A model generated the notes under the pieces. That model did not search any database, was not told the DNA's origin, and worked only from the letters and a program-made list of their open reading frames with translations. This document shows positions 33,461 through 64,000 of a DNA stretch of 64,000 nucleotides, piece after piece. Numbering within the stretch: position 1 is the stretch's first letter; each line of letters begins with the position of its first letter. Source of the DNA: Chloroflexota bacterium (GTDB lineage: Bacteria; Chloroflexota; Limnocylindria; Limnocylindrales; CSP1-4); assembly GCA_016191395.1 (NCBI GenBank), contig JACPOS010000025.1, forward strand, positions 81,158 to 145,157. Direction: 5' to 3'. A program made the translations under genes and the position numbers.

Positions 33461-33538
33461 CGGGGGCTCCTCCTTCCTCGATCCCGGTCGGGGCTTCTCC
33501 TCTCCCCGTCCGTGCGGTTGCGGGCGGCGACAGGTCGA

Positions 33539-34486: not shown

Positions 34487-34489
34487 TCC

Positions 34490-39307: not shown

Positions 39308-39371
39308 CGCTGAAGGATAAACGCCCCCGACCGTTTCGCCGTCGATGGGCCATGGCGACGGTGCGCGGCGC

Positions 39372-47633: not shown

Positions 47634-48092
47634 ATGGATCTCGTCGCCGGCGACAGCCGCGAGATCCTGCTCGTCGTCGCGATGGACGAGCTCGCCGCGT
47701 TCGACGACCGCGGCCGGTTCCCCGCACACCTCGCGTTCGGGGGCGCGATCGATCCGACGTGGCTTGACCTGTTCAGCCAGGCCGTGCGCTCCGTGTCCGG
47801 TCGCGACGAGCCGCGCGACTTCCTGGACGCCCGCGCCGAGCTTGACGGCCCCGGCGAGGCCGGAGATCGAACCGTGGAGCGCATCGACCCCACCTGGATC
47901 GACGCGATCGCTCGCCTGGACGACCACGACCTTGACGCGGTGACCGGGCGCTGGATCGACCTCCTCCAGGACGAGATCGGCGACTTCCCGCGCGAGGAGA
48001 AGCCCGCCATCCGGAAGTTCGCCGGCGACATCGTGGCGTTCGCCCGCGCTGCAGACCACGCCCCCGCTGTGATCCTCGCCTGGTCGCTCTAG
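47634..48092 (+). CDS. Hypothetical acidic protein (~152 aa)
   Basis: ATG at 47634 (or GTG at 47622), just after sucD. Strong third-position G/C bias. Asp/Glu-rich with a duplicated IDPTW(L/I)D motif. No family recognised. The stop overlaps the giant gene stop through a shared CTAG. Confidence 0.55.
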   Translation: MDLVAGDSREILLVVAMDELAAFDDRGRFPAHLAFGGAIDPTWLDLFSQAVRSVSGRDEPRDFLDARAELDGPGEAGDRTVERIDPTWIDAIARLDDHDLDAVTGRWIDLLQDEIGDFPREEKPAIRKFAGDIVAFARAADHAPAVILAWSL

Positions 48093-51000
48093 GAGACGCC
48101 GGAGGACTCGTCGCGGGCGAGCAAATGGCGACGGCTGGCGCGACGCCGGCGCTCGGGCTCGAGGAGGATCGCCAGTCCGCCGAGCAGCCCGAGGAGCAGC
48201 GGCAGGATCGGTGACGGCACCTCGACGGGTCCGTGGTCCGCGCCCTCGTCCGTGTCGATCGTGGCCGTGTCGATGTCGTTGGTCACGAGCACCTCGGCGA
48301 TGCCGCCACCCGGAATGACGACGGTCGAGCTCTTGCCGCCGGGATCGCTCGGGGTGTAGTGCGTGCCGCTCCAGAACCACTTGAACGGGAGCGGCCCCGA
48401 CAGCCCGATCTCCGTCACCGTGCAGGACGTCCCGGCCGGGATCTGGTCGGGCAGGAGGAGCGTCCCGCTGGACTGGCCCTTCGCGATCGTGAGGTAGACC
48501 GTGCGACCCAGGCAGCTCACCTCGAACGCGAACGTCCCGCCCGGGAACAACGCGCCGACGAGGACGAACTTGGTGATCCGGAGCCGGCCGGACAGGAGCG
48601 ACCGCGTGTTGGTGACCGTGACATCGGCGATGGAGTCGCTCCCGATCACGACGGTCGAGCTGGTGCCGCCCTCGTCTGCTGGGTCGTAGGCCGTCCCCTG
48701 CCACGCATCGGTGCCCAACTCGGTGATCGTGCACGACGTCCCCGACGGGATGCGATCCGGCAGTGACACGCTGCCGGACGTCGAGCCCGATGGGATGGTG
48801 ATCGAGACGGTCCGGTCGAGGCAGCTGACGGTGAACTCGAAGGTCCCGCCCTCGAGCGAACCCACGATGTTCTTCGTGATCCGCAGCTGGCCCGTCTCCG
48901 AGCCGATGACGTTCGTGACCGTCACGTCGGCGACGGCCTGGCCGGTGATCTGGACCGTCGAGCTCGCGCCGCCGATATCGCTGGGCTGGTACGTGGTCCC
49001 TGCCCAGGCGTCGGTGCCGAGCTCCGTGACCGTGCACGACGTGCCGCCGAGGATCTTGTCGGGCAGCAGCACGGCGCCGGAAGCGGCGCCGTTCGGGATC
49101 GTGATCGAGACGGTCCGGTCCAGGCAGGAGACATAGAAGTCGAACGTGCCGCCGGAGAAGCTGCCGCCCGTGACGACCTTCGTGATCTGGAGCCGTCCGG
49201 CGATCAGGTCGAAGACGTCCTGCCAGAGGACGTGGACGATGGCGCTGGCGCTCACCGGCTCGGTCTGCGTGCTGTCGGCCGTCGCGGTGTTGACGATCGT
49301 GACGCTCGCCGCCGGCAGGAACGTGGTGTAGGTGCACGTGAACGACGCGCCGACGGCGAGGCTCGGCGGGATCGAGCAACCCGCGAGGTCGCTGCGCGTA
49401 TCCACGAGCGTCACGCCGCTGAGCGGCACGTTGCCCGTGTTCGTGACCGTGATCTCGTAGTGGGCCAGCGTCCCGAAGCTCGCCCAGATCTCGGCGAAGA
49501 ACGGGCCGGCCGCAGAGCTCGAGACGAGCTTCGTGATGGTGATCTGGGGGTTGGAGAAGGCGACGACCACCGCTGAAGCCCAACGGGCGCCGGTCTCGGT
49601 GGATGAGCCTGTGGCCGTGTTCACGGTGGTGCCGTGGCTCGCGAATCCGGAGTAGATGCAGGTGTACGTCGCGCCGACGGCAAGCGTCGTTGGGACGTCG
49701 CAGCCCGCGGCCACCAGGTCCGTGCGGTCATCGGCGAGGGTGATGCCCGTGAGCGTGACATTGCCCGGGTTGTGGAGCGTGATCCGGTACTGGATGACGG
49801 CGCCGTCATAGGTCTCGAGGTAGGTCGTCCACGAGCCGCCCAGCAACGCGACCTGCTTGGTGATCTCGAGGACGGGGTTCCGCTTCAGCCCGACGACCGT
49901 CACGGAATCGCTGACCGGATCGGTTTCGGTCGCGTCCGCCGTGGCGGTGTTCACGGATGTTCCCAGGGCTGCATCCCAGGTGTAGGTGCAGGTGAAGGAC
50001 GCGCCGGGCGCGAGGCTGGCTGGGATGACGCAGTTGGTCGTCCCCAGGTCGATCCGCGTGTCGAGAAGCGAGAGGCCGGTGATCGTGACGAGGCCGATGT
50101 TGGTGACCACGATGTGGAAGGTCAGCTGCGTACCGGCCAGCACCGTGACGGTCTCCACGTCGCCGCCTGTCGCCGGGTCGACCACCGTCTTGGAGATCGC
50201 CAGGGCCGCGGGCAGCCCAATGACCGTTGCGGAGGAGCTGACAGGCCCCGCCTCGGCGGCGTCCGCGGTCGCCGTGTTCACGGTCGCGCCGGCAGCGGCC
50301 GTCGTCGTGTACGTGCACGTGAACGAGGCGCCCTCGGCGAGCGTTGCCGGGATCGTGCAGCCGGCACCGATCAGGGACAGGTCGGCAAGGCTGTCCACGA
50401 GGCTGATCCCCGTCAGGTCGCCCGTGCCGGTGTTCGTGACCGTGATCCGGTACTCCACGGTCGCGCCGATCGCCACGGTGACGCTCTTGCCGTAGGTGCC
50501 GCCCGGGACGCGGACCTCCTTGACGATCCCGATGGCGCTGCCGCCGCCGCTCGCGACAACGGTCGCGGAGTCGCTGACGGGACCTGTCCCGTCTCCCGAC
50601 GCCGTCGCCGTGTTCACGGTCGTCCCATCGACGGCGGTCAGGGGGTACACGCAGGTCGCGCTGGCGCCGGCGGCAAGGCTCGTCGGGAACTTGCAGTTCG
50701 CAGCGACCAGGTCGGTCATCGAGTCCGAGACCGTCAGGCCCGTCAGCGCGTCTGGTCCGAGGTTCGTGACGGTGACGCGGTACCAGACGGTGGCGCCCGT
50801 GACCACGGTGACGAGGTCGCTCCATGGCCCATCCTCGGCGGTGGCGACGACCTTGTCGATGCGCAGGTCGACGACCGGCGACGGCGGTGCGATCACCGTC
50901 GCGGATGCGCTGACCGGCCCGGTCTCGTTGCTCGAGCCCGTGGCAGTGTTCGTCCGTGTGCCGACCTGGGCGACGTCGCCGTAGATGCAGGTGAACGTCT

Positions 51001-54000
51001 CGCCCGGGGCGAGCGTCGTCGGGATCGTGCAGCCGGCGGCGACGAGGTCCGTGCGGTTGTCCGTGAGCGTCACGCCCGTCAGCGACGTCTCGCTGGATCC
51101 GTTGGTGAGCGTGATCCGGAACCAGACCGTCGTGCCGGGTGCGACTGTCACGGTGCCCGCCCACGGGCCGACCTGCGACGTCGACACCTGCTTCGTGATC
51201 ACGAGCGGCCCGCCGACTGGACGGACGCCGGTGACCCACGCAGTGCCGTGCACGGGCACGGTCTCGGCGCTGTCCGCCGTCGCCGTGTTGGCGAATGTCC
51301 CCTCGCCGGCGATTTCGGGATAGAGGCAGGTGTACGTGGCGCCGACGGCCAGGGTCGTCGGGATGGCGCAGCCTGCACCGGCGAGGTCCAGCCGGTCGTC
51401 GGTGAGGGTGACGCCCGATAGCGGCGCGTTGCCGGTATTGGCGACGACGATGCGGAACCAGACCATGGTTCCTATCGGGACGCTGACAGCGCCCTGCCAT
51501 GGACCCGCGGGATCCGTGCCGACCACCTTCTCGATCGTCATGGCGTAGCGCAGCGAGCCCGTTACCTGGGCCGTGCTCTTGTCCGGGGTGACGCCGTCGG
51601 CGCTTGCGGTCGCGGTGTTCGTCAGCGTGCCGTCGATCGAGATCCCCTGGTAGAAGCACTCGAAGGCTTCGCCGGCGGCGAGGGTCGTCGGGATGACGCA
51701 GCCAGCGCTCACGAGATTCGTCAGCGAATCGGCCAGGGTCACGCCCGTGAGCGTGCCGGGACCGGTGTTGACGACACGGATTCGCCACCAGACGCTCGTG
51801 CCGGCAACCGTGTCGAGCGTCGCCGTCCACGGGCCGAACGCCGACGTGGAGACCTTCTTGTCGACATCGATGCCCGTCGGGATCGGCAGCCCCACCACGA
51901 TCGCGGTGTCCGTGTCGGGCACGGACTCGGCGGCGTCGGCGGTGGCGGTGTTGGTCGTGCTGCCGAGGGTGGCGATGGCGCTGTAGGTGCAGGTGAACGA
52001 GGCACCCGGCGCGAGGCTCGGCGGGATGACGCAGGCGCTGAGGTCGGCGTGGTCGTCGACGAGGGTGATGCCCGTCAGGGTCACGCCGCCGGTGTTGGTG
52101 ACGGTGATGGCGAAGTCGACGAGGCTGCCGGCCAGGACGCTGACGCTCGAGGTGTAGGGGTCGGCCGGCGAGGCCCGGACGCCCTTGGTGACCGAGAGCT
52201 GGCCGGGCGGCGGCGGGCTGACGATGGGCAGCCCGGTGACGCGCGCGGTGGCCGAGACCGGGCCGTGCTCGGCCGAATCCGCGGTGGCGGTGTTCTCGAC
52301 CAGGCCGAGCGCGGCGGTGGCGCCGTACTCGCAGACGATCGAGGCGCCTGCGGCCAGGGTGTCCGGGATGGTGCAGCCGGCGGCGAGATCGGTCCTGGAG
52401 TCGAGCAGGGTCACGCCGGTCGCGGTCAGGTCACCGGTGTTGGTGACCACGATCCGGTAGATGACCGGCGTGCCGGCGTCGACGACGAGGTCGGTCGTCT
52501 GGTCGCCGCCCACCGTCCGGACGGTCTTGGTGATCGCCAGGATCACCGGGCGCAGGCCGGTCAGGCGAGCCGAGTCGGTCACCGGGGTGGCCTGGTCGGC
52601 CGCGGCCGTGGCGACGTTGGTGATCGTCCCCCGCCCGACCACCACGGCGTAGATGCAGGTGAACGACGCGCCCGCGGCGAGGGTCGAGGGGATGGTGCAG
52701 CCGGCCCCGGCGAGGTCGACCGCGAGGCCGCCGGCGACGTCGGTCAGGGTCACGCCCGTGAGCTCGCTCAGGCCGGTGTTGGTGACGACGATGCGGTACC
52801 AGGCGGTCGTGCCCTCGTACGCCGTGAGCGAGCTCGTCCAGGGGCCCGTGGCGCTCGGCGCGACCGACTTGGTGATGCCGATCGGCGGGGTCGGCGGTGG
52901 CGTGGCGCCCGGGTCGGTCAGGGGCTCGTTCCGCTCGCCGGGCAGGAGGAGCGCGAGCCAGAGCGCGAAGGTCGCCCCGGATGTGCTGGCGTTGACCACC
53001 GTCGCCGGCAGGCTCTCCACCCATGCCGTGGGGAGCAGCGGCGCCACGATTCGCGCCGCCTGGTCCAGCCACCACAGCTCGCACGCCGGGTCATACAGAT
53101 TGATCGCGCAGGCTGCCGTCGTCCGCGCACGGAGGAACGTCCGGGTCGTGAAGACGTTGCTGCCCGCGCCACCGTCGAGCAGCAGCGGTGCGTGGTTCGC
53201 ATAGACCTGGAAGGTGTCGTCGCCCTCGCCGCCGAGTGCGTGCAGCGGGTTGGTCGGGCCCTCGCTCAGCCAACCGCGGACGGTGGCGACGATCGGGAAC
53301 AGGTCCTCCGGCTCCAGGCTGCCGTGGTCGGGACCCTCGAGCGCGTCGCGCTTCGAGCCGTACACCTGGCCGAACTGGAAGAAGTCATTCCCCGCCCCGC
53401 CGTCGATGTACACCGGCGCGCTCGTCCCGTCGACGGCGAACGTGTCGTTGCCGCCGTTGCCGTAGACGAACAGGCCCGTCCCCGCATCGTCGATGCCGGC
53501 GTCGTAGTTCACCCGCTGCACGAACTGGGGCCGCACGCTCGGGTCGAAGTTGGGGTCACTCGCAATCGCGTCCGCGAGGTCATCGTGGAGGAGCGCGATG
53601 AACGCCGAGTCGGTGCTCGTGATCGCCAGCCAGGCGCGCACCGCGTCCGGCCACTGGTCCGGCTTCAGGTCGCGAATCGACGTCGTCTTCCGGAGCAGGA
53701 AGTAGTCGTTGCTCGCGTCCGTCCCCGCGACGAGCAGGAAGTCCAGCCCGCTCGTGCCGCTGTCCAGCACGTTGACCACGTAGTTGCGCCGATCGCCCTG
53801 GCTTCCCGTCGTGAGGACCTGGTAGAGGTCACTCCCCTGCTGGCCGTCGAGCGTCAGCGTGTGGCCGGCCGCGACGTCCATCGTCTGCAGCTGGTTGACC
53901 GTGAAGGAGTCGGAGCCGTCCGAGCCGCCGCCGGTGGTGACCGACGCGCTGCCGTAGACGCGCGTCTTCGCCCGCAGGAACGTCTGGTCGAAGGTGACCT

Positions 54001-57000
54001 GGTCATCGCCGGTGCCGCCGAAGACCTCGATGAGCTTGGTGTGCTGCGGCCCGGATGTCGTGGTGCAGGCCGCGTCGGAGCCGGTGACGGGCCCCTGCGA
54101 GGTCATCCCGGCAACGGTCACCGTCGCGCAGACGCTGCCCGCGGGCGCCTTGGCGCTTGCCTGGAAGACCCAGACCTCGCTCGGCTGGAGGATGCCATCG
54201 CCGTTCACGTCGCCAGACACGTATGCGGGCGTCACGTCGTCCGTGATGTCGGCCGGCGTGCCGCGATCGTCGACGACCGTGAGTCCGGAGATGTCGAAGT
54301 CGCCCGGGTTCGAGACCCAGTACGTGAACTCGATCGGCGCGCCGAAGATCCGCGTGAGCGCGGTCCCGGCGGTGTGCGCCTCGACCCCGTCGACCCGTTC
54401 AAGGACCCCGATCGCCGCCGTCGGCTGGTGCGTCGGCGGGTCGGCGACGCCCGTGTAGCAGCCCGGGTTCGAGGCACTGTCGGTGAGATTGCCGCCGGGA
54501 TCGAGCCGGACGCCGACGCTGATGGTCACGTCCGTGCAGTGCTCGCCCGCGAGGACCGTCGCCGTTGCCCGGTAGACCCAGAACGTGCCGTCGTCCGGGT
54601 CGCCGTTGTGGTTCGTGTCGCCGGACACGAGGGTCACGTTCACGCCCGCAACGCCCGGATCGGTAACGGTGATCCGGGTCCAGTCGCCTGCGAACGCCAC
54701 GACGAAGAACCAGGTGACGGTGTCCCCGACCCGGAGGACCGGCCCGACCGGTACCGTGTCTGCGGCGAGACCCGTGTACGGCGCGATCCCGGTGGACGTG
54801 TAGACCTTGGCGACCTTCACGTCGTGGGCAACGATCGGGCCACCGGTGTACGCGACGCTCGTCGATGCGTTGATCGGCTGGCCGGCGACCGTGCCGCTCA
54901 CCGTTGCGGTGATCAGGAACGGCCCGGTCGAGGCGAACCGGTTGACCTCGAAGGTCCACACCTCGCCGGGGTCGAGCAGATGGTCCCCGTCGGTGTCGCC
55001 GGATCGGAGGATTCCGCTGCCCATGGCCGTCGGGAGGAAGTCGTCGTGCAGCGTGACGTTCGCGATCGGGATGTCGCCGGTGTTGCGGACCGTGTAGGTG
55101 AATGTCTGCGGGGCCCCGATCACCGGCGTGGCGTTGTTGACGACGCCCGTCACGGTGAGCCCGATCGATGTGCTCACGACCGGCGCCGGGCCGTCGCAGC
55201 AGTAGATGAATTCGCCGCCGATGACGCCGCCGAACGTCATGGTCGAGGCGCCGTTCGCGAGCCCGTGGATTCGGACGAACCGGCCCGCGACGATTTCCGT
55301 CCCTGCCGGCGCGTCGATGCCGAGCTGCATGTACAGGTCGATGTCGAGCGCTGCCCAGACGCCGGCGAGCTGGTCGCCCGGTCCAAGGGTCGTCGACGGC
55401 ACGACCGCCTGCGGGTTGCCCTGCTGGACGAGCGCGGTGCGGAAATCGGGCGCGGCGGCGGCCGCACCCGCGCCGGCCGTCGGGGCGACGATGAACAGGT
55501 CGTATGGTGGGGCGCGGGAACCCAGGCCGCCGACCACGATCAGCACGGAGCCGGTGTTCGAGCGCGCCGCGAGGAGGCGCAGCTCGTTGTCGAGCTGCGC
55601 GATGTAGATGGAGTCGCGGGCGGTGGCGTACAGCCGCCCCGAGCCGGGGGAGTTCGCCGACGTTCGCAGGAGGATCGGCGCGCTCCCGCTGCCGATGCCG
55701 CCGCCGATCGCCGCCAGGTCGATGCTCTCGCCGAAGATGAAGGGCAGGATCGGATGGAACGCCCGGCCGTCGACGATGGAGCCCCCACGCGTCGTGAGCG
55801 AGATGTCCGTCGGCACGTCGGCGCCGTGCTCGCCCGAGCCGATCGAGTCGATGCGAAGGTCGCCGACGGTCTCGGTCAGGTAGACACCACCGGTGTCCGC
55901 GGTCGCGTCGACATATCCGAACGGACTTGTCACGTCGATCTCGAGGAAGTCGTCGGGCGAGCCGACCCCGCCGCCGAACGCGTGCAGGATGATGAACAGC
56001 CCAACCACGTCGGCCGGATCCTCGACCGCGACGTGGTCCGCGGGGTCGCCATCGAGGATGCTGCCGGCGACCGTCGTCAGCGTCACGACGTTGCCGCGCG
56101 TCTGGACCAGCCCCACGCGCAGGTTGCCCGCGGTCTCGTTCAGGTCGATCGAGCCGTCGACGTCCACGTCCAGCCAGTTCGGGAGCAGCACGTCGACGAG
56201 GTTGAGCGAGCCGTCCACCGACGTCGGGGTGGCGGACACCCCGCCCTCGCCCGTGAGGCTCAACGTGTCCCGAAGCGAGATTCCGGCGCCGCCGACACCG
56301 GCGGTCTCATCGCACGGCGCCGGCGCGCACGTCCCGAACAGCGCGTAGCGGCCGCTGACGATGACGATGACCGGGGCAAAATGGTCCAGGCCCGTTCCGC
56401 CGAACGCCTCGAGCGTGCGATCGAGCGGATCCGACCCATCAAGGTGGAAGTTCGTCGTGATCGGGCCACCGTCCGTGGAGAACGCACCCGGGTCCAGGCC
56501 AGGCAGCGGCGCCGTGATGTCATCTGGACGGAAGTGGCGATAGACAGGCTTCGGTGTGCTCCAGAAGAGGTCGCCGCCGCCGTTCGCGTTCGGGATCTGG
56601 ACCTGGACGACGGATGAGCCAGCGATGCCGGTGCCGCGGAGGCTCGTCCGGAGCTCGACATCCACCGGTCCATTGGTCGCGAAGAGGCGATCGATCCGGA
56701 CCGTCAGCGGCGAGGTCGACGAGCCGGGCACGCGGTCATGGGCCCGAATGCTCAGCCGGATGCCGGTCCCGGCCTCGGCAGCGAGGCGGGGCTCGGCGAT
56801 GCCGGTCGCGGTTGAGCCGACGCGCGGCCGGATCTCGTATCGGATGAGCTCGAGGACCAGCCGGCCGTTCGCCTCGTCGATCGAGCCGTTTGGCGCGTAC
56901 AGGTCCACCAGGTTCGATTCGATTGCCACGCCCGTTGCGCCAAGGATCGAACCGAGCATGTTCACGACCCGCGTCAGCCCGATCGGGTTCGTGATCCTGC

Positions 57001-60000
57001 CACTGAGCACGAGGGTGCCCGGTCCGAACTTCTCGATGTCGACGATCCCGTCGGCGACCCTGTGCGCAACGTTGAACTGCAGCGGGGCCCAGCCGTTGGT
57101 CGCACTGCCGCGGAGCGGCGTCAGGACGACCTGCGCAGGGGTTGTTGCGTTGTGGATGAGCACGTCGATCGCCCCCACCCGCACGGTCATGTCCGAGTAG
57201 TCGAGGATCGTGACCGAGCCGATGGAGTCGCGCCACTCGAAGGTCGGCCACGGCCGATTGCTCACGGCATTGCAGTTGTCGACGTCGTTGCGGATGCAGT
57301 CGCGGCCGTCCATCACGATGTCCGCGTAGCCGCTGGCGGCGATCGGCGCGACCGTGTAGCCGCCACTCACCGGCACGATGCACCAGGGGACGTAGCTGCC
57401 CGGCGTCGCGGGGCAGCCACCCTCGGGTCCAGCGATCGGGGCGAACGTGCCGCGGGCATCGGTGACGCTCACGCCGGTCGCGGCAGCGACGGTGCCGTCC
57501 GCCCGGACGACGAGCGTCACGTCGCCCGCTGACCCGCCGAGGATGACGACGTCCGCGTCCCAGCGGATCGGGCCGTTGATCGCGCCCGGGTACGGCTCGG
57601 AGTCGGGATTGTCATTGAAGCCGCAACCGCCGCCGTTCTCGCAGTGGTGGTCGATGTAGTTGTACGGGAGGGAGGTCGCGTGCTGCGGCCACTCGACCTT
57701 CAGGACATCCGTCTTCACGTTCAGCGCGACCTGCAGGTCCGCGCGCGGGTTCATGAGGCCGCCACCGCCCGCCGGGCGCTGCCCCGCCGTCACGAGCACC
57801 CCGTCCATCGCGACCACCTGGTCGAGCGTGTCGTCGGTGCCCTCGGCCCATGCGTCCTGAGCGCAGAGGCAGACGCCCTGGCGGAACGCGTAGCGGTCGA
57901 TCTTGACGGCGTCGGTAAGGGCGATCAGGTCCACGCCCTGCCACCCGGTGATCGTCGTCCGCGTGCCGGGCGCCGGCGGCACGCCGTCCAGGTTGACGCC
58001 AAGCTCGACGGAGGTCGTCAGGTACGCGTCCACGAACGCTCGCGCCGTGAGCCCGCCGGCGACGGCGATCGACTCGGCCCAGGCTCGCGACGACGCATCG
58101 ACCGACTTGAGCTCGGCCTTCAGCGACACCGCCCGGCCGACCAGCGATGCCCCTTCGCCCACGAACACCGAAGTGGTGGCACGATCGCTGCTGCTGCCGA
58201 TCGTCGTGCCGCGGGGGTCGTTGTGGTTGTTGGCGTCTGCCCCGACGCCGCCACCGTTGGAGTACGCCTGCGAGTTCGATGCCCCCCAGATCGTGAGCGT
58301 GACGAGGGCGGAGACGAGATTGCCGGCAACGATCGAGCTGCCCTCGCCGAACACCGCCGTCGTGTCGGGATCGAGGCTGACCATCGTCTCCGCAACCTTC
58401 GCCGCGGCGATACCGCCGCCTTCGGCGAGCGCGCTGGACCTGACGGTGTGGTTGGCGGTAGCGGTCACGGTCATGTCGCCGCCGGCCCGGACCTGCGTCC
58501 CGGCACCGACGCCAGCCGTGGTGATTGCATCGCCCGCGTTCGTCTCCGAGTGGACGACCGCGACGTCGAACACCCCACCGCTGCCGTTGTTGGTGTTGCT
58601 GAACAGGTTCGTCATTTCGTCCCCGGAAACCGCGACATCGCCGAGGGCATCGACCGCGGCGGCACCGATCGTGGCGAGCACCGTGGTCGAGCCGAACAGC
58701 TTCGCGGTGGGCACGCTGACATCGATCACGCCGAACGAGTCGCCGCGCGCGTCGGCCACGGACTGCCCATCACCGGCCGAGGCACTGCCATTCACCTGCA
58801 GGTACATGCCCGATGGCGAGATCGTCCCCGTCAGGGCGCCGAAGGTGAGGTTCGCGTACAGCGCCTGGGTACCCGAGCTCGCGCTGAGGTCGACCGTCAC
58901 GAGGCCGAACGTATGGCCTGCACCCCGGCCGGCCGCCGTGAGCGCGAGGGCCGGACCGGCCGGCGTCAGGCCGACGCCGATCGTGCCCTGGCCACTGTTC
59001 CGGTTGACGACGTAGTAGGTGTAGCCATCGATCAAGGCGCCACCGCCCACGATCCCCAGGGCACGCTCAAGGGTGTGCCCGTCGTCCGGCAGGCTGTTCG
59101 CCGCTGCGGTCATCGAGACGAGGATCCGGTGGGCGCTCTGGCAGGCGGCAACGTCCACGCCCGCGTCAGAGCACGTGAGCAGGCCGACCCAGCTTGAGAC
59201 CCAGCCGGCGGACTTGAACACCATGTACGTCGCGCCGTCGTCGAGGCCCTGGATCGCCACGCCGTTCCGGACGTGGTAGGTGACGAGCTCGCCGGTCGAG
59301 AAGGTGTTGCCCGGCAGGATGAGGTGGTCGACCGAGCTCGGGTAGACGATCGAGAATGGCGTGATGACGATCGTTCCGCCGAGCGCCCCGATCGTGGCGA
59401 ACCGGGAGACCGCCGAGGCGTGGTAGGTGATCGCCTGCCCGACGACGAAGGTCGACGGGAGCGGCGACACGGCCACGGCCGCTCCGTTGATGGAGGTGAC
59501 CAGCGCGGGTGCCGGCGGCGCGAACGGGTCGTCGGTGACGAGGCGGATGGTCAGGGTGTCGATTACGACGACCCGGTACCCGCCGCACGTCGCAGTTGCC
59601 CCGCCGGCGGCGATGATCGGGCTGCTCGACCGAGCGTCGTACATGACGCAGTCGCCGGTGAGGAAGCCGTGCGGCGTCGAGAACCTGATGAGCTCCCGGT
59701 TCGGGTCAACAAGTGACGCATCGAACAGCGAGCCGAGCCGGATGACGCCCTGCGTCAGGGTGTCGAGCACCGTGTACTCGTTCCCCGTGTGCAGCCCGCC
59801 GATCTGGAAGAGGCACAGTCCGCCGACCGTCGAGACGGTCGGGCAGTACGTCACCGATGCGCCCTCGGCGGGGATGCCGGTAGCGAACGTCAGCGTGTCG
59901 CTGTCCAGGTTGAATGACTGGATGAAGCCGGGGCTGCTCGACGTTGGCGCAGTCTGGAGCGTGGCATCGACCGTGATGGAACCCGTGGCGAAGATGCGGG

Positions 60001-63000
60001 TCCCGAGGGACGCCAAGGTGCCGATGTACGCCTCGACGAACGGCACGATCGTCGCGATCGCCTCGGGGATGCCGACCTGCAGCGCGCCCGCACCGTACGC
60101 CGTCGCGGTGGCGTCGGCCTCCGCCCGGCCCGTCGCCCTGACCGATACGTCGCCCGTGACGCGGTGCGCCTTGCTGCCGATGTTCACGCCGTCGCCGATC
60201 GCCGCACCGATCGTGGGGATGGAGGTCGCAAAGGCCTGGGAGCCGCCGATCGAGATGACCCCGGCGCTTCCGAGCGTGATCTTCGCGGACGCGACGGCGG
60301 TGGTCATCTCACTGGTGACGCTCACCGACGAGGCGCTCTCGATCGTCGTCGCGTCCCCGATCGTCGCCCAGGTCGAGCCGGTCAGCGACGCAGCGCCCAC
60401 GAGCCAGGCGATCGCGACGCCGCCACCCGACCCGCCGCCGCTGTCGCTCCCGCTCCCATCGCCCTTCGACAGGTTCGCGATCGCCTGCTGCGAGGACGAG
60501 GCGGCGATGGAGATGCTGCCGGTCACGACGAGCGATGCACCGCCGCCGCTCGGACCACCGGCGATCGTGGCCAGCGTGTCGGAATCCACGATTGCGTCGG
60601 CACGGCCACCGGCGCCCGTGAACAGCCCCACGCCGACCGCGAGCAGCGAGCTCGTCGCCACGTCGTTGGCGCTGGCTTCGATGTCAAGCCGTCCGACCTC
60701 GAAGCGCGAGCCGGCGGAGATCCAGGCGCGGGTCCCCGCCACGGCGCCGGACGGCGCCCTGAGGATGGCCACGCCGTTCGCGTCGCCGGGCGCCGTCGGG
60801 TTGCCGGCCGCAGGCGTGAAGGACAGGCTCGTCGCGCTCACCGCGGTGACCTGCCCGGTGTAGGTGCGGGGCGTGCTGCCCACGAACACCCGAATGACGA
60901 CGGTGTCGCCGACTTGGAACGCGCCCAGGTTCCCGTCGGCAGCTTGGATCGAGACCGAGCCGCTGCTGATCGTGGCGTCGCCGTAGTAGACGAGCTCCTG
61001 GCCGATCAGCGCCTGCGACAGGAACCCGGCGACCGCGACGGCACCGCCGGCGCCACCGCGCGCGTCGGCCGTCGACCGGGTCTTCTCGAGCGCGCTGACG
61101 AGGAGCCGCCCGGCGGACGAGATGAACGTCCCGCTCCCGATGAAGCTCTCCACGGAGCCGGTCACCTGGGCGGACGCGCGCGCGCCCGTGCCCGCGAGGG
61201 CCGCCACCGCCGCCGCGGTCGCAGTGGCCGTGGCCGTCCTCGTCGTGCAGCCGCCGTCCGTCGCCGGATCGTTGCACGCGGCGGTATGGGTCCAGACCGT
61301 GACCGACGACCCGGTCACCGTGGTCGAGTTGCCGACATAGGCGCGGATCGACCCGCCGACGCTCGCCTTGTCTTCCAGTGCGCCAATTGCGAGCCCAGAG
61401 CCGCCCGTGGCGAGGGTTGCAGTCGCGGTGGCCGTCTCGGTGCCGAGTGCACGTACCTCGACGGGACCGCTCGAGGTGATGAAGGTTCGCCCCACCGCGG
61501 ACGATCCGCGCGTCGCGCCGACGATGGCCTCGGTGTCCGCATCCGCTGCCGCGGTGGCACCCGCCCCGGTGCCGCCCGCGAACTGCAGCCCGATCACGAC
61601 CACGCCTACGTCCACGCTGGACGTGTCGCTCGCCAGGACCTGCAGCGAGGCGACGTCGACGCTCGCCCGCTGGCCGACGCTCGCGCGGGTCCGGCCGGCC
61701 ACCGTGGCCTTGAGGTAGGCAGCGCCGATCCCATAGAACCCAGTGGAACCGACGTCGACGTGCACGCTCGCGGTGCGCGTCGACGTGGCGGAGACCTTCG
61801 TGGCGCCCGCGCGCACGGCGGCGTCGGCGGCGATCTCGGCGACGACCGCGTCCGTGCCCGCTGCGCCGACCGTTACGATCGTGACACCACTTTGGCCTGC
61901 CGCGAGGCCCCCGCCGAGCGCGATGCTCATCGGTTTGCCCGGATCGTGCGGGCCTACGGTCACGGTGTCGTCGGCGGTGACATTCAGCGCGCCGGTTCGC
62001 GCGCCAGACCCGATGATCGAGTGCTCTCCGACGCGCGCGACCGTGCTCCCGCCGACCGTCACGATGGCGATTGCGGCGCCGATCGCCGCGGCGGAAGAGA
62101 TCCCTGCCTCACCGGTTGCGAGGTGGATCGTCGTTATCCGCATCGCCGAGATGGTGACGACGTCGGCCGTGGAGATCGTCGCGCCGATGATCGCGAGGTC
62201 GCCGACGTTGGCGCGCACGTCGCTCGTGTCGGTGACGACGGCGACGGCACCACCGATCGCCCAGATCCCTGACGCGGCGCCGGCGACGGCGAGCGCGTGC
62301 ACGTCGGCGCTCTGGCCCGCGGCGATGGTCACGTCACCACCAGCGTTGACGGTCGCGCCCGAGGCGAGGAACGCGCGGACGGACTCCTCGATCGTGTCCA
62401 CGAGGATCGCCGCGCCGACACCCGCTCCCCCGCCGACGCCGACCGAGCGGGCCACGTCAGCCAGGACGATCCGGGCCGACGCCGTGACATCGACGTTCCG
62501 GCCCGCGTCCGCAACCCCGCCGGACCCGATGAATGCCGTCGTCCCGCTCGGGATGACGCCGCCGGGCGACGGGACCGCCGAGCCGAGCGCCGAGCCGGAG
62601 ACCGCGCTCGACGCGCCGTTGACCTGCGTGACGACCGTCGGGCTGTTCGACGCGCCAAGTCCGCTGAGAACCCCCGTGACCGCACTCCCGGCACCGCCAC
62701 CCGCGGCGCTGTTCGCCGCGCCGGTGATCGAGGTGCCGTCGCTCCGCGTGCAGTCGCTGTTCAGGGTCGTGGGGAGCGTCAGCGAGCTGCCGGCGGCGCC
62801 GCTGCAGCCGCCGGGGTAGGTGTCCACGAGGTCTCCGCCGAGCGCGTGGATCGCGATGGACCCGGCGAGGCCGATGCCGCCCGCCGCGCCGACGACCACG
62901 TCCACGTCAAGGTCGCGGTTTGCCACGGCCCGGATCGCGACGTCGCGCCGGGCGTGCACGCCACCGAGGACGTCGGCCGTGGTGTCGTTGCGGATCACGC

Positions 63001-64000
63001 CCACGTCCACGGAGATACCAGCGCCCACGCCCCCGATGCCGAACCCGCCGGTGACCGTCTTCATCCTGACGCTGTCGACCGCGACGACGTGCACGTCCTG
63101 GCGGCTGTCCGCATTAACGTCCGGCGTGGAGGCGTTCACGACCGCGCCGACGCCGACCTCGGCTCGCGTGTTGGCGTCGAGCACCTCGACGCTGACCGCC
63201 CCCGCCGCTCCGAAGAACGTGCCACCCGCGACGCCGATGGTGACGGTCAGGAGCTGCTCGGAAGACGCGGCCTGGACGAGGACACCTCGCGGATCCGTGG
63301 TCGCGACATTGAACGAGCCATCGCTCGGATCGATCGTGCCGTCGAACGGCTGGAGCGCCGTCGCGGAGTTGCCCGCGGCATCCACCTGGGCCATGCCCTC
63401 GATCGTCGCGCGGGTGTCCTTGACGATCGAGACGACCGCGACACCGGCGCCCACGCCGCCGGTGAAGATCCCGACGCCCCCGGCCACCGCGGCGGCGGTG
63501 ATCTCGGTCAGGTCGGTCGCGGTGATCGAGGTGTTGCCGCCGGACCGCGTCCGCGACCGGCCACCGATCAGCGCATGCGTGAGCGCATTGATGGCGAGCA
63601 CGAGGACCGCGCCGCCGATCGCGACCTCGCCCGAACCTGCCGCACCAACCGCGACAAAGAGGATGTGCTGCCGAGCGACCGCGTGGACGCCGATATTGCC
63701 TCGCGCGTCAACGTGCGCGTCGCGGCCGATCAGCGCCTCCACCTCGGTCCTGGCTGCGAGGACGCCGACCGCGGGCAGCACCGCGGCCGTCCCGGACGCC
63801 CCGGCCGCCCCGGCAATCCCGAGCAGCGTCAGGTCGTTGCCCGCCCCGACGAGGACCTCCTGCCCGGCACCCGCGCCCGCCATCTGGTTGATCTCCGTGG
63901 CGCGGCCGATGTAGGCGGAGGTCCCGTCCATGAGGACGTGGACGACCCCCGAAACCTCGACGCTGGCGGTCGCGGAGCCGGCGACGCCGACACCGAACAG
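48089..64000 (-). CDS. Giant repeat-rich surface/adhesin-like protein, more than 5,300 aa within the window; 5' end lies beyond the right edge
   Basis: A single uninterrupted frame of 5280 aa from the first Met at 63931. The frame stays open to 64000 (hand translation LFGVGVAGSATASVEVSGVVHVL-MDG...). Mosaic domain content is listed in the sub-features below. The C-terminal hydrophobic anchor has a basic cluster. Confidence 0.85.
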   Translation of the reverse strand: MFGVGVAGSATASVEVSGVVHVLMDGTSAYIGRATEINQMAGAGAGQEVLVGAGNDLTLLGIAGAAGASGTAAVLPAVGVLAARTEVEALIGRDAHVDARGNIGVHAVARQHILFVAVGAAGSGEVAIGGAVLVLAINALTHALIGGRSRTRSGGNTSITATDLTEITAAAVAGGVGIFTGGVGAGVAVVSIVKDTRATIEGMAQVDAAGNSATALQPFDGTIDPSDGSFNVATTDPRGVLVQAASSEQLLTVTIGVAGGTFFGAAGAVSVEVLDANTRAEVGVGAVVNASTPDVNADSRQDVHVVAVDSVRMKTVTGGFGIGGVGAGISVDVGVIRNDTTADVLGGVHARRDVAIRAVANRDLDVDVVVGAAGGIGLAGSIAIHALGGDLVDTYPGGCSGAAGSSLTLPTTLNSDCTRSDGTSITGAANSAAGGGAGSAVTGVLSGLGASNSPTVVTQVNGASSAVSGSALGSAVPSPGGVIPSGTTAFIGSGGVADAGRNVDVTASARIVLADVARSVGVGGGAGVGAAILVDTIEESVRAFLASGATVNAGGDVTIAAGQSADVHALAVAGAASGIWAIGGAVAVVTDTSDVRANVGDLAIIGATISTADVVTISAMRITTIHLATGEAGISSAAAIGAAIAIVTVGGSTVARVGEHSIIGSGARTGALNVTADDTVTVGPHDPGKPMSIALGGGLAAGQSGVTIVTVGAAGTDAVVAEIAADAAVRAGATKVSATSTRTASVHVDVGSTGFYGIGAAYLKATVAGRTRASVGQRASVDVASLQVLASDTSSVDVGVVVIGLQFAGGTGAGATAAADADTEAIVGATRGSSAVGRTFITSSGPVEVRALGTETATATATLATGGSGLAIGALEDKASVGGSIRAYVGNSTTVTGSSVTVWTHTAACNDPATDGGCTTRTATATATAAAVAALAGTGARASAQVTGSVESFIGSGTFISSAGRLLVSALEKTRSTADARGGAGGAVAVAGFLSQALIGQELVYYGDATISSGSVSIQAADGNLGAFQVGDTVVIRVFVGSTPRTYTGQVTAVSATSLSFTPAAGNPTAPGDANGVAILRAPSGAVAGTRAWISAGSRFEVGRLDIEASANDVATSSLLAVGVGLFTGAGGRADAIVDSDTLATIAGGPSGGGASLVVTGSISIAASSSQQAIANLSKGDGSGSDSGGGSGGGVAIAWLVGAASLTGSTWATIGDATTIESASSVSVTSEMTTAVASAKITLGSAGVISIGGSQAFATSIPTIGAAIGDGVNIGSKAHRVTGDVSVRATGRAEADATATAYGAGALQVGIPEAIATIVPFVEAYIGTLASLGTRIFATGSITVDATLQTAPTSSSPGFIQSFNLDSDTLTFATGIPAEGASVTYCPTVSTVGGLCLFQIGGLHTGNEYTVLDTLTQGVIRLGSLFDASLVDPNRELIRFSTPHGFLTGDCVMYDARSSSPIIAAGGATATCGGYRVVVIDTLTIRLVTDDPFAPPAPALVTSINGAAVAVSPLPSTFVVGQAITYHASAVSRFATIGALGGTIVITPFSIVYPSSVDHLILPGNTFSTGELVTYHVRNGVAIQGLDDGATYMVFKSAGWVSSWVGLLTCSDAGVDVAACQSAHRILVSMTAAANSLPDDGHTLERALGIVGGGALIDGYTYYVVNRNSGQGTIGVGLTPAGPALALTAAGRGAGHTFGLVTVDLSASSGTQALYANLTFGALTGTISPSGMYLQVNGSASAGDGQSVADARGDSFGVIDVSVPTAKLFGSTTVLATIGAAAVDALGDVAVSGDEMTNLFSNTNNGSGGVFDVAVVHSETNAGDAITTAGVGAGTQVRAGGDMTVTATANHTVRSSALAEGGGIAAAKVAETMVSLDPDTTAVFGEGSSIVAGNLVSALVTLTIWGASNSQAYSNGGGVGADANNHNDPRGTTIGSSSDRATTSVFVGEGASLVGRAVSLKAELKSVDASSRAWAESIAVAGGLTARAFVDAYLTTSVELGVNLDGVPPAPGTRTTITGWQGVDLIALTDAVKIDRYAFRQGVCLCAQDAWAEGTDDTLDQVVAMDGVLVTAGQRPAGGGGLMNPRADLQVALNVKTDVLKVEWPQHATSLPYNYIDHHCENGGGCGFNDNPDSEPYPGAINGPIRWDADVVILGGSAGDVTLVVRADGTVAAATGVSVTDARGTFAPIAGPEGGCPATPGSYVPWCIVPVSGGYTVAPIAASGYADIVMDGRDCIRNDVDNCNAVSNRPWPTFEWRDSIGSVTILDYSDMTVRVGAIDVLIHNATTPAQVVLTPLRGSATNGWAPLQFNVAHRVADGIVDIEKFGPGTLVLSGRITNPIGLTRVVNMLGSILGATGVAIESNLVDLYAPNGSIDEANGRLVLELIRYEIRPRVGSTATGIAEPRLAAEAGTGIRLSIRAHDRVPGSSTSPLTVRIDRLFATNGPVDVELRTSLRGTGIAGSSVVQVQIPNANGGGDLFWSTPKPVYRHFRPDDITAPLPGLDPGAFSTDGGPITTNFHLDGSDPLDRTLEAFGGTGLDHFAPVIVIVSGRYALFGTCAPAPCDETAGVGGAGISLRDTLSLTGEGGVSATPTSVDGSLNLVDVLLPNWLDVDVDGSIDLNETAGNLRVGLVQTRGNVVTLTTVAGSILDGDPADHVAVEDPADVVGLFIILHAFGGGVGSPDDFLEIDVTSPFGYVDATADTGGVYLTETVGDLRIDSIGSGEHGADVPTDISLTTRGGSIVDGRAFHPILPFIFGESIDLAAIGGGIGSGSAPILLRTSANSPGSGRLYATARDSIYIAQLDNELRLLAARSNTGSVLIVVGGLGSRAPPYDLFIVAPTAGAGAAAAAPDFRTALVQQGNPQAVVPSTTLGPGDQLAGVWAALDIDLYMQLGIDAPAGTEIVAGRFVRIHGLANGASTMTFGGVIGGEFIYCCDGPAPVVSTSIGLTVTGVVNNATPVIGAPQTFTYTVRNTGDIPIANVTLHDDFLPTAMGSGILRSGDTDGDHLLDPGEVWTFEVNRFASTGPFLITATVSGTVAGQPINASTSVAYTGGPIVAHDVKVAKVYTSTGIAPYTGLAADTVPVGPVLRVGDTVTWFFVVAFAGDWTRITVTDPGVAGVNVTLVSGDTNHNGDPDDGTFWVYRATATVLAGEHCTDVTISVGVRLDPGGNLTDSASNPGCYTGVADPPTHQPTAAIGVLERVDGVEAHTAGTALTRIFGAPIEFTYWVSNPGDFDISGLTVVDDRGTPADITDDVTPAYVSGDVNGDGILQPSEVWVFQASAKAPAGSVCATVTVAGMTSQGPVTGSDAACTTTSGPQHTKLIEVFGGTGDDQVTFDQTFLRAKTRVYGSASVTTGGGSDGSDSFTVNQLQTMDVAAGHTLTLDGQQGSDLYQVLTTGSQGDRRNYVVNVLDSGTSGLDFLLVAGTDASNDYFLLRKTTSIRDLKPDQWPDAVRAWLAITSTDSAFIALLHDDLADAIASDPNFDPSVRPQFVQRVNYDAGIDDAGTGLFVYGNGGNDTFAVDGTSAPVYIDGGAGNDFFQFGQVYGSKRDALEGPDHGSLEPEDLFPIVATVRGWLSEGPTNPLHALGGEGDDTFQVYANHAPLLLDGGAGSNVFTTRTFLRARTTAACAINLYDPACELWWLDQAARIVAPLLPTAWVESLPATVVNASTSGATFALWLALLLPGERNEPLTDPGATPPPTPPIGITKSVAPSATGPWTSSLTAYEGTTAWYRIVVTNTGLSELTGVTLTDVAGGLAVDLAGAGCTIPSTLAAGASFTCIYAVVVGRGTITNVATAAADQATPVTDSARLTGLRPVILAITKTVRTVGGDQTTDLVVDAGTPVIYRIVVTNTGDLTATGVTLLDSRTDLAAGCTIPDTLAAGASIVCEYGATAALGLVENTATADSAEHGPVSATARVTGLPIVSPPPPGQLSVTKGVRASPADPYTSSVSVLAGSLVDFAITVTNTGGVTLTGITLVDDHADLSACVIPPSLAPGASFTCTYSAIATLGSTTNTATADAAESVPDTDTAIVVGLPIPTGIDVDKKVSTSAFGPWTATLDTVAGTSVWWRIRVVNTGPGTLTGVTLADSLTNLVSAGCVIPTTLAAGEAFECFYQGISIDGTLTNTATASADGVTPDKSTAQVTGSLRYAMTIEKVVGTDPAGPWQGAVSVPIGTMVWFRIVVANTGNAPLSGVTLTDDRLDLAGAGCAIPTTLAVGATYTCLYPEIAGEGTFANTATADSAETVPVHGTAWVTGVRPVGGPLVITKQVSTSQVGPWAGTVTVAPGTTVWFRITLTNGSSETSLTGVTLTDNRTDLVAAGCTIPTTLAPGETFTCIYGDVAQVGTRTNTATGSSNETGPVSASATVIAPPSPVVDLRIDKVVATAEDGPWSDLVTVVTGATVWYRVTVTNLGPDALTGLTVSDSMTDLVAANCKFPTSLAAGASATCVYPLTAVDGTTVNTATASGDGTGPVSDSATVVASGGGSAIGIVKEVRVPGGTYGKSVTVAIGATVEYRITVTNTGTGDLTGISLVDSLADLSLIGAGCTIPATLAEGASFTCTYTTTAAAGATVNTATADAAEAGPVSSSATVIGLPAALAISKTVVDPATGGDVETVTVLAGTQLTFHIVVTNIGLVTITGLSLLDTRIDLGTTNCVIPASLAPGASFTCTYTWDAALGTSVNTATADATETDPVSDSVTVVGLKRNPVLEITKQVALLGGSWTTYLETYDGAVIQYRITLHNPGNVTLTGITLADDRTDLVAAGCDVPTTLAVGATYTCIYSGFASHGTTVNTATGSSTETGARWASAVVVAFSNPQITITKLVSSSAAGPFFAEIWASFGTLAHYEITVTNTGNVPLSGVTLVDTRSDLAGCSIPPSLAVGASFTCTYTTFLPAASVTIVNTATADSTQTEPVSASAIVHVLWQDVFDLIAGRLQITKVVTGGSFSGGTFDFYVSCLDRTVSITIPNGAASGAVLLPDKILGGTSCTVTELGTDAWAGTTYQPSDIGGASSTVQITGQAVADVTVTNVIGSETGQLRITKNIVGSLEGGTFEFTVSCLDRTVSITIPSGSTSGSVSLPDRIPSGTSCTITELGTDAWQGTAYDPADEGGTSSTVVIGSDSIADVTVTNTRSLLSGRLRITKFVLVGALFPGGTFAFEVSCLGRTVYLTIAKGQSSGTLLLPDQIPAGTSCTVTEIGLSGPLPFKWFWSGTHYTPSDPGGKSSTVVIPGGGIAEVLVTNDIDTATIDTDEGADHGPVEVPSPILPLLLGLLGGLAILLEPERRRRASRRHLLARDESSGVS
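48161..48220 (-). other. C-terminal tripartite motif of the giant protein: VPSP, 16-aa hydrophobic helix, then (after EPE) RRRR; resembles PEP-CTERM or other sortase-type signals
   Basis: ...GPVEVPSPILPLLLGLLGGLAILLEPERRRRASRRHLLARDESSGVS-stop. Coordinates were checked against the DNA (CCG TCA CCG at 48217-48209). Confidence 0.5.
48272..49198 (-). repeat. Three tandem ~100-106-aa modules (G[RQ]L[QR]ITK...F.F.VSCL.RTV...GTSCT[VI]TE...TVTN), prealbumin/DUF5979-like
   Basis: Hand alignment of three consecutive units. Each has two conserved Cys about 31 residues apart. Units 1 and 2 share identical stretches (VSCLDRTVSITIP, TELGTDAW). Boundary checked at the GGA codon 49198-49196. Confidence 0.7.
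49199..52882 (-). repeat. Eleven tandem ~109-116-aa DUF11-like (conserved repeat domain) modules
   Basis: Every unit follows x-[IV]-x-K-x-V...G-x-x-V-x-[YFW]-x-I-x-V-x-N-x-G...L-T-G-[VIL]-x-L-x-D...C-x-[IVF]-P-x-[ST]-L-A-x-G-x-x-x-x-C-x-Y...NTATA. Start checked at the ATC codon 52882-52880 (IGITK). Confidence 0.75.
52883..54037 (-). other. Region of the giant protein with about five GGxGxD-type (calcium-binding-like) motifs
   Basis: FGGTGDDQVTF, YGNGGNDTFAV, DGGAGNDFFQF, LGGEGDDTFQV and DGGAGSNVFT. They are irregularly spaced, not a canonical RTX nonapeptide array. Ends with a Pro-rich linker, PGATPPPTPP. Confidence 0.5.
54038..55174 (-). other. Three Ig-like modules carrying SGD-x-(D/N)-x-(D/G)-... 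[PE]-x-E-V-W-x-F motifs
   Basis: RSGDTDGDHLLDPGEVWTFEV, VSGDTNHNGDPDDGTFWVYRA and VSGDVNGDGILQPSEVWVFQA, each embedded in a ~120-aa beta-rich segment with DUF11-like TYTV.N.G.. strands. Confidence 0.5.
59942..64000 (-). other. Gly/Ala/Thr/Val-rich degenerate-repeat region (at least 1,350 aa) resembling filamentous hemagglutinin/LktA-type beta-helix repeats
   Basis: Recurrent ...AGGxGxGAAxxVxxxxxxxxAxIG... periodicity (for example GGVGAGVAVVSIVKDTRATI, GGVGAGISVDVGVIRNDTTADV, GGAGVGAAILVDTIEESVRAFL). The assignment is by pattern only. Confidence 0.45.

Follow-up and report, generated by a model that had tools for sequence, protein, structure and literature searches.

A giant gene of a Chloroflexota bacterium is predicted to encode a membrane-anchored, fibrillar adhesin-like surface fibre

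The question raised by this locus is what kind of protein is encoded by a minus-strand reading frame that runs through positions 48089-64000 without a stop codon. The locus lies in a 64,000-nucleotide stretch of a Chloroflexota genome of the Limnocylindrales (assembly GCA_016191395.1, contig JACPOS010000025.1, positions 81,158 to 145,157), and this whole stretch is referred to as the window. An earlier note, made from the sequence alone, had described the product as a giant mosaic surface protein, a description that agrees with the Pfam modules, the cysteine pairs and the C-terminal hydrophobic helix found here (Table 1). Our analyses suggest that the protein is probably a Sec-exported, C-terminally membrane-anchored surface fibre resembling fibrillar adhesins.

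The frame comprises 5,303 codons, closes with a TAG stop at 48089-48091 and extends past the window edge at base 64000, as the earlier note had reported. Given the base composition of the window (70.7% G+C), a stop is expected every ~54 codons, and the chance of a stop-free run of this length is thus ~10^-43. The codon-position G+C of the giant open reading frame (ORF), 0.64/0.56/0.92, resembles that of other genes in the window, and its third-position value (GC3) stays between 0.86 and 0.95 across all 900-nt slices, without any compositional seam. The frame is coding over its entire length. Its translated product in the window has a mass of 530 kDa and an isoelectric point (pI) of 4.4, with a pI of 4.2-4.7 in each segment assigned to the outside of the cell. 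On the opposite strand, stop-free frames of up to 1,732 codons (e.g., 51422-56617 on the plus strand, and others within 48-64 kb) have a GC3 of ~0.5-0.6; as shadows of the high-GC gene, they might be mistaken for genes in annotation.

An ortholog scan covering one genome per GTDB species recovered close orthologs on three contigs from Chloroflexota metagenome-assembled genomes (MAGs), here labelled L001 (90% identity), L003 (81%) and L002 (78%). Each of them aligns collinearly with the window protein from residue 1 on, without gaps, and L001 fills its 10.5-kb contig with a single open frame. The homolog L018 (72% G+C, on a 186-kb ENA contig) is more distant, with 41-60% identity, and collinear over residues 503-5230; it is broken by frameshifts, which are possibly assembly errors. 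At least five independent assemblies of related, high-GC Chloroflexota carry this architecture. Pairwise ratios of nonsynonymous to synonymous substitution rates (dN/dS, Nei-Gojobori) between the window gene and L001, L002 and L003 are 0.12-0.21, which indicates purifying selection on the giant gene.

These comparisons also bear on whether the locus could be an assembly artefact, through collapse or chimeric joining of repeats, or else a pseudogene in decay. Metagenome-type sequence rich in repeats invites such a suspicion, and related long-read contigs do carry frameshifts: in L017 and L018 (ENA contigs of 140 and 186 kb) the giant-gene homologs are split among several called genes, again possibly through assembly errors. 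Nevertheless, the frame in the window is unbroken and its GC3 even, and repeat collapse is unlikely because DNA-level repeats across the gene reach only 60-78% identity and Tandem Repeats Finder reported nothing relevant in the region. Independent assemblies are, moreover, collinear with the window protein over residues 1-1606, 1-2655 and 503-5230, and the low dN/dS argues against decay. An artefact or pseudogene, including the chimeric assembly that the earlier note had named as a possible refutation, is thus scarcely credible.

The upstream continuation of the window gene was inferred from four orthologs (L001, L002, L003 and L019), of which only L002 reaches the gene start. There, the frame begins ~9.6 kb upstream of the site matching window residue 1, and the likely start codon is a GTG at nt 359 of the contig, 85 nt past the stop of a preceding gene that, read by eye, resembles a VOC-family or methylmalonyl-CoA epimerase-type gene. 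The N-terminus of L002 is MASAPSRRAGRRATVAVIAYLTLGPLLPALVQPAAAA, followed by a Pro/Thr/Ala-rich linker of ~300 residues. Read by eye, this N-terminus has a basic n-region, a hydrophobic core and an Ala-rich c-region, and is taken as a putative Sec-type signal peptide. The contig of L019 (GCA_039932035.1) breaks within the same Pro/Thr linker, and metagenome scans for further N-termini and upstream genes returned no match. Window residue 1 would correspond to about residue 3,215 of the full protein, with ~3,200 codons lying further upstream, in keeping with the earlier placement of the N-terminus outside the window. This would put the full protein at ~8,500 amino acids (aa) and the gene at ~25.5 kb, the window holding the C-terminal, larger part.

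The most informative part of the protein lies towards its C-terminus, where two tandem arrays had been noticed as eleven DUF11-like and three prealbumin-like repeats. Profile searches placed both far over the gathering scores: the first array matched Pfam DUF7507 (E 1.2e-85, 11 stretches; models PF24346/PF01345) and the second DUF5979 (PF19407; E 4.3e-31, 3 stretches). Pfam now names DUF11 'CLIPPER' and DUF7507 'CLIPPER_2'. From a crystal structure (9IFR) and biophysics, Costa et al. 2025 established that CLIPPER is CnaA-like and contains a Lys-Asn isopeptide bond within the molecule, with Asp as the catalyst, and they report that CLIPPER-type domains make the stalks of fibrillar adhesins (PMC12617251). 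For DUF7507, the same study tabulates triads of Lys, Asp and Asn; for DUF5979, a CnaB-like domain of the transthyretin (i.e., prealbumin-like) clan, it gives Lys, Glu and Asn (PMC12617251). In the window protein, Lys, Asp and Asn occupy aligned positions in 11 of the 11 CLIPPER_2 repeats (spacing ~43/~37), and a Lys...Glu...Asn triad is found at aligned positions in all three DUF5979 domains. As the triads in all 14 domains match those tabulated, the stalk appears isopeptide-competent, and the protein becomes a source of 14 candidate self-cross-linking domains. The CLIPPER_2 copies share just 60-72% identity at the DNA level.

Cysteines add a second kind of potential cross-link. Each stalk domain carries one pair (11/11 CLIPPER_2 and 3/3 DUF5979), and all 56 cysteines of the window-encoded protein form 28 local pairs, 1-30 residues apart, which replaces the scattered, 'cysteine-punctuated' picture given earlier. 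Such pairing fits an exported, oxidised protein, and disulfides also occur in 42.7% of Chloroflexota isopeptide domains (PMC12617251). Both Lys-Asn isopeptide bonds and disulfides would be expected to form in the stalk domains.

Beyond the stalk, the protein ends in an acidic spacer, the hydrophobic helix PILPLLLGLLGGLAILL (aa ~5264-5280, window 48161-48211), the Arg cluster EPERRRRASRR and 12 more residues. The earlier note had taken this tail for sorting-signal-like, an identity that did not survive comparison of its 62 residues with curated sorting-signal models: the sole match was to MYXO-CTERM, at 15.8 bits and E 0.013 against a cut-off of 20, and the tail contains no LPXTG, PEP or GlyGly motif. 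LPXTG, PEP-CTERM-type and MYXO-CTERM identities were accordingly rejected on score. The homolog L018 likewise ends in a hydrophobic helix and a basic cluster (RRPRPRDR), visible only in a shifted frame, and the residues before its helix are unrelated. Given that no sorting model was matched and that the motif before the helix differs in L018, we read the tail as a putative stop-transfer anchor in the membrane that leaves a basic stub in the cytoplasm, and not as a sorting signal that is processed. The alternative, a true sorting signal missing from the catalogues, would be cleaved by a sortase-, exosortase- or rhombosortase-like enzyme encoded elsewhere, which would link the protein covalently to wall or lipid. 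The tripartite layout of spacer, 16-17-residue hydrophobic segment and Arg cluster would suit it, and the weak MYXO-CTERM likeness points the same way. On the other hand, that likeness stays under the curated cut-off, the pre-helix residues are not kept in L018, no sorting enzyme is encoded within the window, and no further protein with this tail emerged from a word-indexed homolog search using the last 173 aa. We therefore regard a sorting signal as very unlikely.

On the N-terminal side of the stalk lie two smaller segments. Three Ig-like modules had been proposed for the more distal one, and two of them are significant as DUF7507 (E 3.5e-9, 2 stretches; DUF11 E 1e-6), the third falling below Pfam significance. 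These modules are without the Lys/Asn isopeptide signature, and each contains an acidic GDxDGD...PxEVW loop. The segment adjoining the stalk contains GGxGxD-type motifs, as had been noticed, at four sites (aa 3328, 3514, 3534 and 3590). Its AlphaFold2 model is a beta-roll or solenoid (predicted local distance difference test, pLDDT, 70; predicted template modelling score, pTM, 0.72), for which the best Foldseek neighbours were CyaA RTX blocks (E 0.03-0.04; probability 0.85 for 6sus), the Ca2+-dependent MpAFP beta-helix and AlgE R-modules, none of them significant. The module is 42% identical to a segment of a Frigoriglobus protein (L015) that precedes true RTX repeats, and the RTX nonapeptide model PF00353 had no match in the window protein. 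It is thus predicted to be an RTX-like beta-roll, not a canonical RTX nonapeptide array, and it probably binds Ca2+.

The N-terminal part of the window protein is a filament of Gly/Ala-rich repeats, as had been recognised before. LktA_tand_53 (NF012206, 'tandem repeat-containing filamentous protein') matched the window part in five stretches at 47.7 bits, just under its cut-off of 50, and the upstream part of the L002 ortholog at 168 bits, above that cut-off. A repeat hidden Markov model (HMM) built here found 16 copies between aa 77 and 1859 of the window protein and 31 in L002. The filament is 33-43% identical to proteins of Thauera, Rhodoplanes, Anaerolineales, Solirubrobacteraceae and Frigoriglobus. 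Beta-rich inserts interrupt it at aa ~1000-1090 and ~1340-1720; neither has a Pfam family or a PDB-sequence match, and a profile of the second against PDB sequences returned just chance PDZ matches (E ~0.3). In this second insert (58841-59983, minus strand), a unit of ~60-90 aa with the pattern xTIxF...HGFxxGDxVxY...GLxxGxxYYV...TIxLA recurs, likewise at aa ~1050-1450 of L002, and the HGFxxGDxVxY...GxxYYV...TIxLA unit is also present in distant relatives; it is a candidate for a small beta domain not yet described.

Between the filament and the Ig-like modules lies an all-beta middle region that had no Pfam, NCBIfam or PDB-sequence match. For the PATR-like motif reported earlier, GPGTLVLSGRITNPIGLTRV, Pfam PATR (PF12951) gave no match at E<=0.1. 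Among 1.84 billion representative proteins, 170 relatives of the middle region were found at E<=1e-3, mostly fragments, and a word-indexed homolog search returned one fragment. AlphaFold2, run on a 40-sequence alignment, predicted an all-beta structure (pLDDT 81, pTM 0.81), whose top PDB neighbours in Foldseek were the beta-helical autotransporter passengers of Hbp, Hap, VacA, SepA and EspC and the TpsA protein HxuA, at non-significant values (E 0.6-9, template modelling score ~0.18). The region is predicted to be a solenoid, that is, a beta-helix-like continuation of the filament. As neither this model nor that of the GGxGxD module had a Foldseek match at E<=0.001 in the PDB, nor the middle model one among viral folds, we regard beta-helix and RTX-like beta-roll as no more than plausible fold classes; an enzyme or toxin identity for the modelled regions was rejected on the same result. 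PDB sequence searches with aa 1-3700 and aa 3301-5303 also gave no match at E<=1.

Filament repeats of this kind are present in giant proteins of many phyla, and the relatives differ in how they begin and end. Thauera/Rhodocyclaceae filament proteins (5,325-5,441 aa) carry an N-terminal LktA-family two-partner secretion (TPS) domain where this end is readable (L005, L009), and an Omp85-like gene follows the filament gene in L004 and L005. TPS models (PF05860, NF012204, TIGR01901) had no match in the first 1,610 aa of L002, with E 3e-46 and 7e-45 for the positive controls L005 and L009, and no TpsB/Omp85-family gene was found 3' of the window gene or directly upstream in L002, where the VOC-like gene lies. 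Alphaproteobacterial relatives (L010, L011 and L016) have at their start the LEPR-XLL motif (NF012209; model 'LEPR-8K'), which scores 25-30 bits there against a cut-off of 17 and had no match in the first 1,610 aa of L002. The head and filament of L002 are nevertheless collinear with these LEPR-XLL proteins at 22-45% identity over ~1,300 aa, with aa ~390-1730 of L002 aligning to aa ~110-1630 of L010 and L011. Besides the shared filament, the Frigoriglobus protein has counterparts of the middle region, 28% identical across ~1,800 aligned positions, and of the GGxGxD module, after which it runs on into true RTX repeats. In the alphaproteobacterial MAG of L016 (14662-20628), a 4,119-aa LEPR-XLL filament protein is followed by genes for a GAF+HlyD-like membrane-fusion protein, a PqqD/peptidase-M50/HlyD-like protein and a SecA-like ATPase, which may be a dedicated export set of the uncharacterised LEPR-XLL family. 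A Solirubrobacteraceae MAG encodes a filament protein of >7,046 aa, open at both ends of its 21-kb locus (L012), with 58 filament repeats, FG-GAP repeats and CBM5/12 carbohydrate-binding modules; these inserts, in a filament from another lineage of Terrabacteria, suggest that the shaft may serve as a scaffold displaying binding modules.

Kinship with leukotoxin LktA raises the possibility that the protein is a released exoprotein or a contact-dependent effector in the manner of LktA, FHA or CdiA, with a filament that is shed or delivers a toxic activity and a C-terminal helix that is cleaved or only transient. The filament repeats do belong to the LktA family, and among the relatives, those of Thauera are genuine TpsA proteins next to an Omp85-like gene. 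Yet the ortholog has no TPS domain, a toxin or enzyme domain was found nowhere in the protein, the C-terminus is a membrane helix after a 14-domain stalk and no toxin tip, and no immunity-like gene is conserved downstream. A contact-dependent inhibition (CDI) or toxin reading was rejected because TPS domain, toxin tip and conserved immunity gene are all lacking, and we consider a shed or effector protein in general highly improbable.

Taken as a membrane-anchored fibre, the protein would work as follows. An N-terminal Sec signal peptide, seen in L002 and extrapolated to the window gene, would drive export, and the C-terminal helix with its Arg cluster would act as a stop-transfer anchor, yielding a type I membrane protein whose cytoplasmic tail is ~20 aa long, as judged from the sequence and the positive-inside rule. 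Outside the membrane, the stalk of three CnaB-like and eleven CnaA-like domains would gain stiffness from one disulfide per domain and from Lys-Asn isopeptide bonds that form spontaneously. It would carry the RTX-like, probably Ca2+-binding module, the three Ig-like modules and a beta-helical filament of ~6,000 aa with beta-rich inserts, and the Pro/Thr-rich linker would form the distal end. From typical domain sizes, the fibre would probably reach well over 100 nm. Its most likely role would be attachment to surfaces, polymers or other cells, or aggregation. In its working plan it would resemble Ebh/Embp, with a shaft apparently borrowed from beta-helical exoproteins that diderms export by two-partner or other dedicated systems.

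Several observations weigh against this reading. The signal peptide was seen in one ortholog only, outside the window genome, and was read by eye, and the hydrophobic helix is short (16-17 residues). Pfam, NCBIfam and PDB-sequence searches recognised no ligand-binding or adhesive domain in the window protein, and both inserts as well as the N-terminal head are without family or PDB match. The beta-helix and beta-roll assignments rest on AlphaFold2 models with non-significant Foldseek matches throughout. Further, the envelope type of Chloroflexota is debated, with an outer-membrane gene repertoire like that of monoderm Terrabacteria (PMC8871954).

The lack of a recognised adhesive tip also leaves room for the same molecule in a structural role, in which it would hold a sheath or S-layer-like coat to the envelope as a fibre, or join neighbouring cells within a filament, and would not bind external substrates. 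Its surroundings of housekeeping genes, purifying selection in at least three related species, and wall-zone features at both ends (the N-terminal Pro/Thr linker and the C-terminal stalk) are in line with such a role. However, isopeptide-domain stalks have so far been tied to fibrillar adhesins and pilins (PMC12617251), and related filaments bear carbohydrate-binding and FG-GAP modules. A purely structural fibre is thus unlikely in our view, and the adhesin-like surface fibre remains the reading that we prefer.

The neighbourhood of the giant gene is dominated by core metabolism. On its 3' side follow a 152-aa ORF, sucD, sucC, an LLM oxidoreductase, IDH, SdhA/B and MurT, and within the window no TpsB, type I secretion system (T1SS), sortase or other secretion or sorting gene is found there, as the earlier note had observed. 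Its statement that the gene sits directly against sucCD needs correction, since the convergent, acidic 152-aa ORF lies in between; the stops of this ORF and the giant gene overlap in a CTAG palindrome. The small ORF has no Pfam or NCBIfam match and is absent downstream of L018, which shows no synteny with the window outside the giant gene itself. A promoter and terminator scan around the 3' end of the giant gene found nothing. MurT, a lipid II amidation ligase confirmed by Pfam, is typical of Gram-positive-type walls; its presence in the window may be a weak hint of such wall chemistry. Other features of the window are listed in Table 1.

Table 1 Features of the giant gene and of the rest of the window (positions are those of the window; residues are those of the window-encoded protein).
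Feature	Residues	Position	Strand	Basis
C-terminal 5,303 codons + TAG of a gene of probably ~8,500 codons		48089..64000	-	Frame, GC3, stop probability
Filament of LktA-type ~48-53-aa tandem repeats	1-2000	58001..64000	-	NCBIfam NF012206, own repeat HMM, homologs
All-beta middle region (predicted), six local Cys pairs	2001-2950	55151..58000	-	AlphaFold2 model
Three Ig-like (DUF7507/DUF11-type) modules	2951-3325	54026..55150	-	Pfam DUF7507, DUF11
GGxGxD module, RTX-like	3326-3700	52901..54025	-	Motifs, AlphaFold2, homology to L015
Eleven tandem CLIPPER_2 (DUF7507) CnaA-like domains, ~110 aa each	3701-4918	49247..52900	-	Pfam
Three DUF5979 (CnaB-like, transthyretin clan) domains	4919-5250	48251..49246	-	Pfam
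Acidic spacer, hydrophobic helix, Arg cluster, short tail	5251-5303	48092..48250	-	Sequence
Convergent 152-aa acidic ORF between sucD and the giant gene		47634..48092	+	GC3 0.91
RNase P RNA class A, bacterial		36600-36945	-	194 bits vs gathering score 100
tRNA-Val (anticodon CAC)		16904-16979	-	ARAGORN + Rfam
Division/cell-wall (dcw) cluster: mraZ, rsmH, ftsI-like PBP, mraY, ftsW, murG, ddl, ftsQ, ftsA, ftsZ		~18400-34900 and 37811-39394	-	Translations by eye

How such a protein might have arisen can be approached only tentatively. It is conceivable, if somewhat doubtful, that a high-GC Chloroflexota clade re-tooled the shaft of a diderm exoprotein (Omp85-, LEPR-XLL- or type I-exported) for a single-membrane envelope, with the export domain replaced by a Sec signal peptide and linker, the RTX/T1SS end replaced by a locked stalk and a helix, and the anchoring polarity reversed. 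If so, FHA/LktA-type filaments of ~6,000 aa could be exported and folded without an outer-membrane transporter, and the locus would offer a natural system for studying vectorial folding of such a shaft after Sec export, which would be of moderate interest to specialists in secretion and adhesins. At ~8,500 aa the protein would be among the larger bacterial proteins, in a phylum whose envelope and surface biology is poorly known, and one polypeptide would unite a diderm-type beta-helical exoprotein shaft with a Gram-positive-type cross-linked Ig-like stalk. It may thus be a useful case for asking whether this lineage has a single membrane and in what way the route of secretion limits the architecture of an adhesin. 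The practical value lies chiefly in annotation, as such genes are usually fragmented in MAGs.

The earlier note had not recognised the combination of modules as a described family. Our literature searches likewise found no description of an LktA/LEPR-8K-type shaft joined to a CLIPPER_2/DUF5979 stalk and a membrane helix, nor of such a protein in Chloroflexota, and essentially no literature on the LEPR-XLL family. The unfamiliarity does not extend to the parts, since both the CLIPPER_2/CnaB stalk and the LktA/LEPR-8K filament are known and the overall plan is that of a standard fibrillar adhesin. Among known systems, LktA/TpsA exoproteins (NF012204, NF012206; e.g., the 5,383-aa protein L009 of Thauera aminoaromatica) share the giant size and the ~53-aa Gly/Ala-rich repeats, which are 35-43% identical across hundreds of residues. 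They differ in the TPS domain and Omp85-type neighbour of Thauera-type loci, neither of which was found in the Chloroflexota ortholog, whereas the Chloroflexota protein has an added C-terminal isopeptide stalk and putative membrane anchor. The LEPR-XLL giants (L010, L011 and L016), together with the Frigoriglobus protein (L015) as a candidate member, share the collinear head and filament and a size class of ~8,000 aa; in place of their LEPR-XLL motif, L002 has a Sec signal peptide (by eye) and a Pro/Thr linker. Furthermore, L015 ends in RTX repeats and L016 is followed by HlyD- and SecA-like genes, whereas the window protein ends in the CLIPPER_2/DUF5979 stalk and the helix.

RTX adhesins such as LapA and MpIBP are very long, repeat-built proteins that are exported by a T1SS and contain a Ca2+-binding beta-roll. 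Great length, repeats and a beta-roll-like module are shared with them, the structural likeness to CyaA RTX blocks and MpAFP being weak. In contrast, the window protein is without a PF00353 array, a C-terminal T1SS signal or nearby T1SS genes, and its polarity would be reversed, with the C-terminus at the membrane. Fibrillar adhesins with CLIPPER/CnaB stalks (Costa et al. 2025, PMC12617251; 9IFR) share the tandem CnaA-/CnaB-like stalk, the Lys-Asp/Glu-Asn triads, the co-occurring Cys pairs and the order of signal peptide (putative here), functional region, stalk and anchor. Unlike in these adhesins, the functional region here would be a beta-helical filament of ~7,000 aa and not a compact adhesive domain, and the anchor a plain membrane helix and not an LPXTG or other catalogued sorting motif. 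A comparable anchoring plan is known from Ebh/Embp of staphylococci (~1 MDa), giant proteins for which an export signal and, in place of a sortase signal, a transmembrane region at the C-terminus are predicted (PMC7587433). The plan of a membrane-anchored giant fibre, with a putative export signal and C-terminal transmembrane region, would be shared, whereas sequence and fold are unrelated, Embp consisting of alpha-helical FIVAR/GA bundles and the window protein being predicted as all-beta. Judged from these comparisons, the modules come from known families and follow a fibrillar-adhesin plan; what appears to be new is not the kind of system but the combination, which lacks a dedicated export domain.

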